From Candidatus Helarchaeota archaeon (GTDB lineage: Archaea; Asgardarchaeota; Lokiarchaeia; Helarchaeales; RDOG01): 64,000 bases of DNA. Below, piece by piece: positions 33,015 through 35,620 of the stretch. Each line of letters starts with the position of its first letter. Position 1 is the stretch's first letter. The notes beneath the pieces were generated by a model. The model saw only the letters and a program-made list of their open reading frames with translations. It was not told where the DNA came from and did not search any database. The translations under genes were made by a program, and so were the position numbers. The stretch covers positions 320,601 through 384,600 of the forward strand of contig JAHPZH010000005.1 in NCBI GenBank assembly GCA_019058315.1. The letters are read 5' to 3'.

Positions 33015-34919
33015 ATGGAAGGAAAAAGAATTTCATACCATGAATCAGTTCGAAAAGTTTATGAAAGAATTAAAAAAGATGGAATGACTAATATTTGGGA
33101 TCGATTTAAAGCTCAAGGGTTTGGAGATGATCCAGATAAAAGATGTCCATTTTGTTTAGGTGGAGTCAGATGTGATTTATGTTCAAATGGTCCTTGTCGA
33201 GCAGATGTGGCAAAGGACAAAAGAGGGGTTTGTGGTATTACTGGTGATGGAATGGCAATGAGAATGATGCTTCTTAGGAATGTTATGGGAGCATCTACTT
33301 ATCATTATCATACCGATCAAACAATAAAAACGCTTCGAGCAACTGCAAATGGAAAAACTCCATTCGAGATAAAAGAACCAGATAAATTGAAAAATTTCGC
33401 TGAAAGATTGGGTGTCGATACTTCAGGGACAATAAAAGAAATAGCCATTCGGTTATGTGATTTTGTAGAATCTGATTTTAACAAAAAATACGATGAACCC
33501 AGTGCAATAGTCGAAGCTTTGGCACCCAGAGAACGCATAGAGCTCTGGAAAAAACTAGGTATTTTTCCAGGTGGTCTACATGGAGAGATAATGTTTTCTA
33601 CGAGTTCTTGTTTGACTAACGTAGATGGATATTATTTAAGCCTTGCTCTTAAAGCGATGCGTTTAGGTGTAGCAATGGCATATCAAAGCCAAATTGTAAA
33701 TGAATTTTGCCAAGATATTCTCTTTAATATCCCCAGACCACATAAAATGCGTGTAGATTTAGGAGTATTGGATCCTGATTATGTAAATATCTTACCTAAT
33801 GGTCATGAACCATTCCTAGGTTTTGCTATGATTCTTCAAGGCCGAAAAAAAGAATGGCAAGATAAAGCAAAAGCTGCTGGTGCAAAAGGTTTAAGGGTGA
33901 TTGCAAATATTGAAACGGGTCAAGAAATGATTCAAAGATGGGAAATGGACGATGTGTTTTATGGCTTTACAGGAAATTGGATAATGCAAGAAGCTGTTCT
34001 CGCTACTGGGTGTGTTGACCTATTTGCTTGCGATATGAATTGTTCAATGCCAATCGACCCAAAATATGCCGAAAAATATAAATTCAAGCTAATTCCAGTA
34101 AGCGAAGTTGTCGCTTTTGAAGGTATTGAAGAGAGAGTCGATTATATTCCCGAAAAAGCTGAAGAGCAAGCAGCTCAGCTTTTACAGATGGCTATTGATA
34201 ATTTTAAAGAACGTAGAAAAACAGTTGACCCTGTTACTAATTTACCAACCAATGAAGCTATAGTTGGATTTTCTTCAGAGAGCATTCTGGAAGCTCTTGG
34301 TGGAAAATTAGATCCATTATTGGATGCAATAAAAGCTGGAACCTTGCGAGGAGTTGTTGGAATGGTTTCTTGTACAAGCTTGAGAGATTATGGTCAAGAT
34401 GTACATACAGTAAATATTGTTAAAGAATTAATTAAACGTGACATTTTAGTACTTTCAATGGGGTGTGGTAATGGTGGCTTACAAGTAGCAGGACTTTGTA
34501 GCCCAGAAGCAAAAGAATTAGCAGGACCTGGTTTAAAAAGTATATGTGAGCAGTTAAATATTCCACCAGTTCTTAGTTATGGAACTTGTACTGATACTGG
34601 ACGTATTGCAGATTTACTTGCTGCGATCTCAAGTGCATTAGGAGACGTTCCTATACCAGATCTTCCCGTTGCTGCGGCTGCGCCAGAATATATGGAGCAA
34701 AAAGCAACAATTGATGCAGTATTTGCCTTGGCATTTGGACTTTATACGTACGTGAATCCAGTTCCAACCGTAACAGGAGGACCAGATTTGGTTAAACTTT
34801 TAACACAAGACATAAAACAAGTCACTGGAGGATTACTAAACGTCGAAACTGATGTTATTAAAGCAGTAGATGGCATTCAAGCGCATATAGAAGCAAATAG
34901 GAAAAAACTTGGTATATAA
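33015..34919 (+). CDS. cooS: Anaerobic CO dehydrogenase-family protein, atypical CooS-V-like
   Basis: CPFC..VRCDLCSNGPC..GVCG, NGHEP, DMNC, VSCT, GCG, GTCTD, EYMEQKA; ANIET where canonical CODH has G(I/M)CCT. Confidence 0.9.
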   Translation: MEGKRISYHESVRKVYERIKKDGMTNIWDRFKAQGFGDDPDKRCPFCLGGVRCDLCSNGPCRADVAKDKRGVCGITGDGMAMRMMLLRNVMGASTYHYHTDQTIKTLRATANGKTPFEIKEPDKLKNFAERLGVDTSGTIKEIAIRLCDFVESDFNKKYDEPSAIVEALAPRERIELWKKLGIFPGGLHGEIMFSTSSCLTNVDGYYLSLALKAMRLGVAMAYQSQIVNEFCQDILFNIPRPHKMRVDLGVLDPDYVNILPNGHEPFLGFAMILQGRKKEWQDKAKAAGAKGLRVIANIETGQEMIQRWEMDDVFYGFTGNWIMQEAVLATGCVDLFACDMNCSMPIDPKYAEKYKFKLIPVSEVVAFEGIEERVDYIPEKAEEQAAQLLQMAIDNFKERRKTVDPVTNLPTNEAIVGFSSESILEALGGKLDPLLDAIKAGTLRGVVGMVSCTSLRDYGQDVHTVNIVKELIKRDILVLSMGCGNGGLQVAGLCSPEAKELAGPGLKSICEQLNIPPVLSYGTCTDTGRIADLLAAISSALGDVPIPDLPVAAAAPEYMEQKATIDAVFALAFGLYTYVNPVPTVTGGPDLVKLLTQDIKQVTGGLLNVETDVIKAVDGIQAHIEANRKKLGI

Positions 34920-34997
34920 TGATATGTACCTAAAAAATCCTCGAAAATTAACTTTTTTTTATTCAATTTAATATAAATTCTGAAATTAAAAATGAAT

Positions 34998-35013
34998 AAG
35001 GGTGCATACCCTT
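34998..35013 (-). terminator. Small perfect hairpin AAGGGT-4nt-ACCCTT followed by U-rich tract
   Basis: Inverted repeat immediately 3' of the SECIS-like hairpin, between convergent genes. Confidence 0.35.
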
Positions 35014-35055
35014 CCATCAAAGCACCTCTAAATTTTTTAGGTGTTTCTCATTTGG
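35014..35055 (-). promoter_or_regulatory. SECIS-like kink-turn hairpin (eukaryote/Lokiarchaeota type)
   Basis: RNA CCA-AAU-GAG-AAACACCU-AAAAAAUUUAG-AGGUGCUU-UGA-UGG: CCA/UGG stem, 3-nt bulge, AUGA..GA tandem G.A core, 7 of 8 bp upper helix, A-rich apical loop. Confidence 0.7.
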
Positions 35056-35488
35056 TTTTAGAATATTGCTTCGTTATTGGATGTTCTTGTCCAAATCTCT
35101 TTGATAAAGCTTTTATAAACTCGTCGATTTTTAATCTTGCATCTATTTCATTTCATCAACAACCAGCATCGGGTGTCAAGAAGACGGAGGAAGACGGGGG
35201 GAGATTTAAAAAAGGATCATCAGCAAGAGGAAGAAATTCTTTATCTTCAGTTCGTGCATCAATTCCTAAATCTATATAAAAATCTCCAGATTGAGGATTC
35301 CAAAGAAGTTGAAGTAAATTGTCTAATATTTTTATAGGAAATGGTTTGTTCCCTAAAATTTCTTTTAGTTTTAGATCTGCAGCTGCAATTGCATCAATTA
35401 CATTACCGTCGTCAGGGATTTCGACTATGAATTTGTTCGTGATCTTGAGAATTTTATCATGTAAAACCATGAGGGTTATTTTCTTCAA
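35048..35488 (-). CDS. MoaD/SAMP-like (ubiquitin-fold) protein, predicted selenoprotein with G-C-U-U motif (146 aa if both UGAs are read)
   Basis: ORF track stops at 35156 (..SSVFLTPDAGC). Codons 35156-35158 and 35153-35155 are TGA TGA, then 34 sense codons NEIDARLKIDEFIKALSKRFGQEHPITKQYSKTK to TGA 35048-35050, which sits inside the SECIS-like hairpin. Confidence 0.68.
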
Positions 35489-35620
35489 ATTTTCTCAACC
35501 TTTATCATTTTTTCCTTTTTAATATAACAATCTTGTGGATATAAAAGACTTACAACTCAAGTCAAAGGAATAAATATAAACCAAATATCATAAAAGAAAT
35601 TATAAATTCATTGAAAGAGG

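Follow-up and report, generated by a model that had tools for sequence, protein, structure and literature searches.

A probable type I Asgard SECIS element, with its core UGA as stop codon and a conserved side hairpin, behind a candidate tandem-selenocysteine gene of a Helarchaeota archaeon

The locus

The window, the whole 64,000-nucleotide stretch of Helarchaeota DNA analysed here, carries on its minus strand a candidate selenoprotein gene of 146 residues (35488-35048) with a TTG start at 35488. Its first 110 codons (35159 to 35488), found in the list of open reading frames with their translation, encode a ubiquitin-like beta-grasp domain that ends in ...PDAGC. Two adjacent in-frame UGA codons follow (codons 111 and 112, 35153 to 35158), which the reading frame and the homologues suggest are read as Sec-Sec, and then a C-terminal extension of 34 codons (35051 to 35152). 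The extension is composed of helices in the AlphaFold2 model and bears a conserved R...F...G...Y pattern; R118, F124, and Y142 are invariant or nearly so in the protein alignment (A6). Its last two codons, ACC AAA, include the 5' strand of the basal stem (C-stem) of an RNA hairpin.

Downstream, the convergent neighbour is a prismane/CO-dehydrogenase-family gene on the plus strand (33015-34919), and on the other side a small nucleotidyltransferase gene diverges from 35621, also on the plus strand. Genes for cation efflux, a GNAT protein, and an enoyl-CoA hydratase lie further out. No Sec-related or arsenic-related gene adjoins the candidate gene at this locus. A general recoding of TGA in the genome was considered and rejected: TGA ends 15% of the long ORFs, and the neighbouring genes are intact under table 11.

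The AlphaFold2 model, made with 34 relatives, has a whole-model pLDDT of 94.7 and a pTM of 0.90, with values of 82-98 for the extension. The closest solved folds are the beta-grasp proteins of the SAMP1, Urm1, and MoaD type (Foldseek E ~4e-3, probability 1.0), which, together with the model, identify the domain. The Sec-Sec position falls at the Gly-Gly terminus of these proteins, and three helices come after it. No Pfam or NCBIfam family was matched by the gene product. A weak Rfam match to the bablM sRNA (35268-35344, plus strand; 29.9 bits, E 0.07, below the gathering score) lies antisense within the coding sequence and is probably due to chance.

The gene family

A six-frame search found the gene in 135 of the 161 genomes of the class. 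Every one of the matches listed has in-frame TGAs, two in each apart from two matches with three, and homology extends beyond the UGA pair to the end of the extension. The in-frame TGA-TGA pair is kept in all 76 family genes traced in 70 fetched loci, and in all relatives the coding signal carries on beyond it. Among 1.8 billion representative proteins, a profile search matched 88, which fall into three groups. Most of these public entries end at the UGA pair, and a few gene calls (P0018, P0023, P0052) show WW there, TGA having been taken as Trp, as it would be with table 4. In a distant branch Sec is missing; there Cys is kept and U-U is replaced by I-T or I-S (P0044, P0046, P0054, P0059, P0082), with V-S in P0016. 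The Cys-Cys form was not seen among the 14 of the 88 public matches that were inspected.

One family member (L024:2043-2468, minus strand) has a third in-frame UGA two codons ahead of the pair (...SSS-U-G-U-U-GG...), and the public protein P0023 has the same three-UGA pattern, with W at all three sites. Tandem paralog pairs, each with a ...GC-UU type ahead of a ...HAD-UU type, occur at L019:1029-1968 and L020:1450-2392, and also at L024, L055, L066, and L067.

The hairpin at the end of the gene

The end of the gene overlaps a 42-nt hairpin (35014 to 35055, minus strand), recognised from its sequence, from a covariance model of other elements in the genome (R2), from covariation in relatives, and from the published definition of the lokiSECIS. 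From the base upward, the sequence provides a C-stem, CCA/UGG (35055-35053 with 35016-35014); a 3-nt bulge, AAU (35052-35050); G35049 and A35048 opposite G35018 and A35017, the arrangement of tandem sheared G.A pairs; a main stem of nine positions (35047-35039 with 35027-35019), of which eight are standard pairs (one of them G-U) and one is an A.C mismatch; and an apical loop of 11 nt, six A followed by UUUAG (35038-35028). The AUGA core (A35051, U35050, G35049, A35048) is immediately 5' of the main stem, and in the reading frame its UGA (35048 to 35050) is also the stop codon of the gene. The order of C-stem, 3-nt bulge, and GA opposite GA is that of a K-turn. The C-stem has only 3 bp, and the pair that flanks the bulge is A-U; in 17 of 19 relatives that pair is G-C.

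Three nucleotides after the core GA a second hairpin begins, the side hairpin (34998 to 35013, minus strand), AAGGGU-AUGC-ACCCUU, with a perfect stem of 6 bp, and 5 nt beyond it a scan for terminator patterns found a tract of five U (34988 to 34992, minus strand). A helix closing both hairpins from the 3' side of the side hairpin was sought and rejected: only a weak and distant AUUCU/AGAAU pairing is available in the window, and for this reason the adjacent CCA/UGG stem is preferred.

Likeness to published SECIS elements

Mariotti et al. 2016 (PMC4989117) defined the lokiSECIS by AUGA directly before a 9-bp stem and GA (rarely AA) after it; by an 11-nt loop with a preference for A in its first five positions and an ultraconserved G, mostly after an A, in its last; and by a location close to or overlapping the end of the CDS. 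The lokiSECIS is the Asgard type I eSECIS-like structure of Huang et al. 2024 (PMC11227280). The window element has the AUGA, the stem (8 of 9 positions paired), the 11-nt loop with its run of A and final AG, the GA, and the position at the end of the CDS, and it lies behind an in-frame UGA; its genome encodes Sec machinery, the PSTK-like gene of which scores below the cut-off. It differs from the published elements in that it serves a family missing from the published lists, with two adjacent UGAs that would be decoded, and in that it is accompanied by a conserved 3' side hairpin, a feature not mentioned in the main texts of the two papers. The family is absent from the five families listed by Mariotti et al. 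2016, from the seven that Huang et al. 2024 found by homology to known families, and from a 2026 review that counts eleven archaeal families.

The eukaryotic type I SECIS (RF00031) shares with the window element the AUGA...GA non-Watson-Crick K-turn core and the unpaired apical A's, as well as the 3' location, the action at a distance, and the requirement for a minimal spacing. The window element, however, has a shorter upper helix, comprises 42 nt in all, overlaps the CDS, and is not matched by the Rfam SECIS. At the gathering threshold Rfam gave no SECIS match in the window, and none of its matches with E up to 10 in 34800-35600 belongs to a SECIS family; other lokiSECIS elements have likewise been reported to go unmatched by standard SECIS tools. 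SBP2 has been reported to be absent from Asgard archaea (PMC4989117, PMC9723677).

The SECIS elements of Methanococcales and Methanopyrus resemble the window element in lying in the 3' UTR near the stop codon and in that one element may serve several UGAs or genes, and the VhuD SECIS elements of methanogens also carry AUGA...GA. Inspection showed that the GAA/A bulge and the G+C-rich upper stem of the euryarchaeal GAA_A bulge-type SECIS are absent from both hairpins in the window. With kink-turns such as Kt-7 or those of box C/D RNAs the element shares the canonical stem, the 3-nt bulge, the tandem G.A/A.G pairs, and then a non-canonical stem, which in the window begins with G-U. Both the kinked geometry and a partner of the L7Ae family are predictions made from sequence.

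Comparison within the genome

The significance of the hairpin rests on comparison, thermodynamics alone saying little. Shuffling gave z-scores for the folding energy of just -1.7 to -2.1, and the minimum free energy (MFE) fold of a longer stretch does not select the hairpin, so that folding of the single sequence fails to single it out. A loose version of the pattern (ATGA/GTGA, 9 bp, a loop, and GA) has 105 matches in the genome (5.8 Mb, 30% GC), or about one per 64-kb window. Such a frequency and the weak z-scores are what would be expected of a K-turn-like motif present by chance, and without function, in AT-rich intergenic DNA.

Against chance stands, first, an independent covariance model. 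R2 was built from the SECIS elements of seven other genes of the same genome (HdrA, VhuD, VhuU, and four others), none of them from the family under study. VhuD had been confirmed by Pfam, HdrA has the expected domains and predicted Sec at the canonical position, and VhuU was identified by its motif; the DsbA-like SECIS was excluded because of its 14-nt loop, which was misaligned in A3. Run unfiltered on both strands of the window, R2 found 35013-35060 (minus strand) with 41.1 bits and E 2.2e-6, a score that is partly by construction, because the training elements had been picked by a pattern that the candidate also fits. This was the sole significant match in the window, the second best having 18.2 bits and E 0.23. 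In the reverse test, a model of the family itself (R1) found the SECIS of another candidate small-protein selenoprotein gene of the genome with E 4e-6; the genome search with R1 scored 150 of 13,134 candidates and is thus no census, a purpose for which a pattern scan in Python served instead.

The genome also contains Sec machinery. A tRNA-Sec (63.5 bits) is adjoined by SepSecS, a SelD with one in-frame TGA is predicted to contain Sec, and a PSTK-like gene is present with a score below the curated cut-off. The pattern scan, combined with inspection of the upstream frames, placed the same kind of element behind HdrA, VhuD, VhuU, a DsbA-like protein with a UPWC motif, three small proteins, and a small membrane protein. 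HdrA has the expected set of domains, with predicted Sec at residues 22 and 206; VhuD matches Pfam FlpD with 195 bits and has one predicted Sec; and VhuU, identified by its motif, lies downstream of the NiFe hydrogenase large subunit. When Pfam FlpD was used to look for VhuD loci of the Sec type in other genomes, nearly all matches were Cys forms.

Conservation in relatives

Behind 65 of the 76 traced family genes, orthologues or paralogues, the element follows directly. Its core is AUGA_GA in 62 of these, AUGA_AA in two, and GUGA_GA in one; put differently, AUGA is present in 64 and GA 3' of the stem in 63. The loop has 11 nt in 49 elements and ends with G in 58 and with AG in 47, and AAA occupies loop positions 3-5 in 61.

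Covariation was assessed on gapless subsets (A2, A5, A7), a first MAFFT alignment of 29 elements (A1) having been disrupted by outliers with longer loops. In a gapless alignment of 19 elements, 88% of the cells of the K-turn hairpin are paired, compared to 38-51% in slid controls, and 11 of its 13 pairs have changed on both sides. None of 500 shuffles reached the observed covariation values, a statistic that overstates significance because the relatives are not independent. Even in the short C-stem all 4 pairs have changed on both sides, with 78% of cells paired among the 19 relatives, and this covariation of the lower stem supports the K-turn reading. RNAalifold, run unguided, recovers both hairpins, and all 13 of the pairs that it predicts show compensatory changes. 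With the same element in the same place behind 65 related genes, and with compensatory changes within it, a chance motif is barely credible; conservation has effectively refuted it.

A first-pass annotation of the sequence had described a stem, an AAU bulge, tandem G.A/A.G pairs, and apical adenosines as a K-turn SECIS, followed by an AAGGGU/ACCCUU hairpin and a U-tract. All of these features are present, on the minus strand, at the coordinates given above, and the changes on both sides of every C-stem pair suit the K-turn that it proposed. It had suggested scoring the hairpin with a covariance model from the organism's own selenoprotein genes and looking for compensatory changes at orthologous loci, and both searches, as described, turned out in favour of a SECIS. 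It had also named a lack of likeness to bona fide SECIS elements as the result that would speak against it; the hairpin instead resembles the elements of HdrA, VhuD, VhuU, the DsbA-like gene, and SelD.

The distance from the UGA pair to the core is 108-145 nt in the family, with a median of 129. Four upstream members of tandem gene pairs depend on one element behind the downstream gene, some 600-690 nt from their own UGA pair. At L019, L020, and L024 a single SECIS was found, behind the downstream copy, and at L055 and L066 there is an element behind each copy.

The core UGA as a stop codon

The reading frame from 35488 passes through the UGA pair and ends at the core UGA (35050-35048), as had been noted from the sequence at the outset; the codons predicted to be recoded lie 108 and 105 nt upstream of it. 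The same use of the core is seen elsewhere. Ten of the 65 family genes, spread over several families of the class, end at the core UGA, as do the HdrA and VhuU genes of this genome. Ten further family genes have a UGA stop 4-27 nt upstream of the core, so that all 20 UGA stops of the family lie 0-27 nt from it, and the other 45 genes have a UAA or UAG stop 8-31 nt upstream. UGA stops account for 31% of the family genes vs 15% of long ORFs genome-wide. Recoded UGAs, by comparison, are at least 105 nt from the core in the family, and 84 nt in the VhuU of the genome.

A UGA that adjoins the SECIS is thus clearly tolerated as a stop, and the spacing fits a rule of minimal distance. This agrees with the proposal of the first-pass annotation that a single UGA serves both as RNA motif and as stop, being too close to be recoded. 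The overlap of stop and core is not a conserved design. Nor is the argument new, since both the overlap and the spacing were published in 2016 for VhuU: Mariotti et al. (PMC4989117, Discussion) reported that the core UGA of VhuU.1 doubles as the stop, and they took the UGA stops close to the element as a sign that recoding needs a minimal distance. Both points, overlap and spacing, reappear in Huang et al. 2024 (PMC11227280).

In 36 of the 65 family genes, with ~22 expected, the core UGA shares the frame of the ORF, and stop codons located 9, 12, or 15 nt before the core are common. Stopping at the core may be ancestral, or the excess of in-frame cores may merely reflect shared descent.

The side hairpin

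Across the 65 family elements the side hairpin starts 1-4 nt after the core GA in 61, its stem is mostly 5-7 bp, and its loop is typically UGC, UUGCY, or AGC. It is present in 86% of them vs 3% of 600 control 3' flanks, taken behind ordinary long ORFs of this genome, and the mean folding energy is -5.76 kcal/mol for the family tails vs -1.35 kcal/mol for the controls. A nearly gapless alignment of 46 tails yields a consensus of a 6-bp stem and a 5-nt loop with G at its third position in at least 90%. In this alignment 88% of cells are paired vs 68% in shuffles, and 56 cells show a double change vs 16, a level that none of 500 shuffles attained; slid controls have 45-56% of cells paired. A side hairpin also stands beside each of the nine other SECIS elements examined in the genome (HdrA, VhuD, VhuU, SelD, the DsbA-like gene, and four small genes), with a GC dinucleotide in the loop of most, the exceptions being the DsbA-like gene and one small gene. 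By these observations the side hairpin proved to be a conserved part of the SECIS element.

Elsewhere in the genome, most SECIS elements have a closing helix around the two hairpins, which makes a three-way junction. The covarying lower stem of the studied family closes the K-turn hairpin only, and here, therefore, the two hairpins stand in tandem. The main text of Mariotti et al. 2016 (PMC4989117), like that of Huang et al. 2024 (PMC11227280), mentions neither a side hairpin nor a three-way junction, and a literature search for SECIS together with "three-way junction" turned up nothing relevant.

Since genes converge at this locus, both hairpins might simply be transcription terminators that the two convergent genes share, with the UGA pair a true double stop. 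The side hairpin and its T-rich tail do fit a loose pattern for intrinsic terminators in the window, and such tails are somewhat enriched behind the hairpin, being found in 25 of the 65 relatives with ~16 expected. Yet 62% of the relatives lack the T-rich tail, so the U tract appears not to be a conserved partner of the side hairpin, and termination probably does not account for the conservation of the latter. Archaeal termination, moreover, requires oligo-T and is not known to need hairpins. Comparable hairpins occur in just 3% of ordinary 3' flanks of the genome; AUGA, GA, the A-rich loop, and the G at its end persist regardless of the neighbouring genes; and both protein homology and a confident fold extend past the UGA pair. 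A pair of plain terminators behind a double stop is thus very improbable. The U5 tract itself is probably an archaeal transcription stop.

It is harder to decide what the side hairpin has to do with the K-turn hairpin. The first hairpin could be the SECIS and the second a separate 3'-end element, either an mRNA stabiliser or a terminator, with SECIS elements marking the ends of transcripts. Published SECIS models do without a second hairpin, the one in the family lies outside the K-turn C-stem as a tandem hairpin and not as the arm of a junction, and in the window a U tract follows it. A separate element would not be expected, however, to keep so close to the core GA (1-4 nt away in 61 of 65), to conserve its loop G in at least 90%, to be enclosed with the K-turn hairpin by a closing helix in most other SECIS elements of the genome, or to be almost absent from ordinary 3' flanks. 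Taken together, these points make two independent elements rather unlikely. Overall, what lies at the 3' end of the mRNA is very probably a type I Asgard ("loki") SECIS, its core UGA being the stop codon of the gene and the side hairpin a conserved side arm.

A model for decoding of the UGA pair

As a SECIS with a side arm, the element could work as follows. The folded K-turn hairpin would recruit the Sec-specific elongation factor with Sec-tRNA, and the adjacent UGAs 108 and 105 nt upstream would as a consequence be decoded as selenocysteine. Translation would then run for 34 more codons, into the 5' flank of the SECIS, and terminate at the UGA of the AUGA core. A ribosome with that codon in its A site would have unwound the C-stem and the core, and the unwinding would leave no SECIS to recode the stop, an argument already made by Mariotti et al. 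2016. The side hairpin would act as the side arm of the SECIS and not merely as a terminator, with the U5 tract probably ending transcription.

A more specific model can be put forward tentatively, at somewhat less than even chances. In it, the Asgard SECIS is bipartite, consisting of the K-turn hairpin and a required side hairpin, 1-4 nt after the core GA, whose stem has 5-7 bp and whose loop of 3-5 nt carries a nearly invariant G. The side hairpin would be the place where the substitute for SBP2, such as archaeal SelB, docks. Bacterial SelB, which reads a hairpin loop, offers an analogy.

Both the SECIS and the overlap of its core with the stop codon bear out what has been published, and the element is a regular, well-formed representative of a class already described. 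It adds a well-documented case in which two adjacent UGAs would be decoded from ~105 nt and UGA stops are tolerated at no more than 27 nt. As a marker, the SECIS certifies a widespread and uncatalogued tandem-Sec family that has a ubiquitin fold and in which the predicted Sec-Sec stands at the place of the terminal Gly-Gly of SAMP and MoaD. The side hairpin is the part that goes beyond the main texts of Mariotti et al. 2016 and Huang et al. 2024. If functional, it would call for a revised view of SBP2-independent UGA recoding in Asgard archaea, and this revision would in turn bear on the origin of the eukaryotic system.

Sec machinery and other candidate selenoprotein genes of the genome

The Sec cluster of the genome (G000:C5:125922-128115) comprises SepSecS (125922-127046), tRNA-Sec (127141-127228), and an AIR-synthase/SelD-like ORF without Sec (127366-128115), which scores 46 bits to the selD model.

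Outside the window, four small ORFs with an in-frame UGA are followed by a lokiSECIS with a side hairpin: L116:36-446 (plus strand), L117:77-433 (plus strand), L118:155-475 (minus strand), and L119:136-366 (minus strand). They are missing from the archaeal selenoprotein lists of Mariotti et al. 2016, Huang et al. 2024, and the 2026 review. Three of the ORFs encode soluble proteins, 107-137 aa long, of which one weakly matches Pfam Fe-S_biosyn. The remaining one encodes a 77-aa membrane protein with a U-P-L-C motif, and it ends with UGA-UGA 12 nt before the core.

Mariotti et al. 2016 described HdrA as always preceding VhuD, using the SECIS of VhuD, and always ending in UAA or UAG. The HdrA gene of this genome (L122:44-2044, minus strand, equal to G000:C3:41543-43543) has a SECIS to itself and ends at the UGA of that core; upstream of the gene, at C3:43566-43934, is an MvhD gene of the Cys type.
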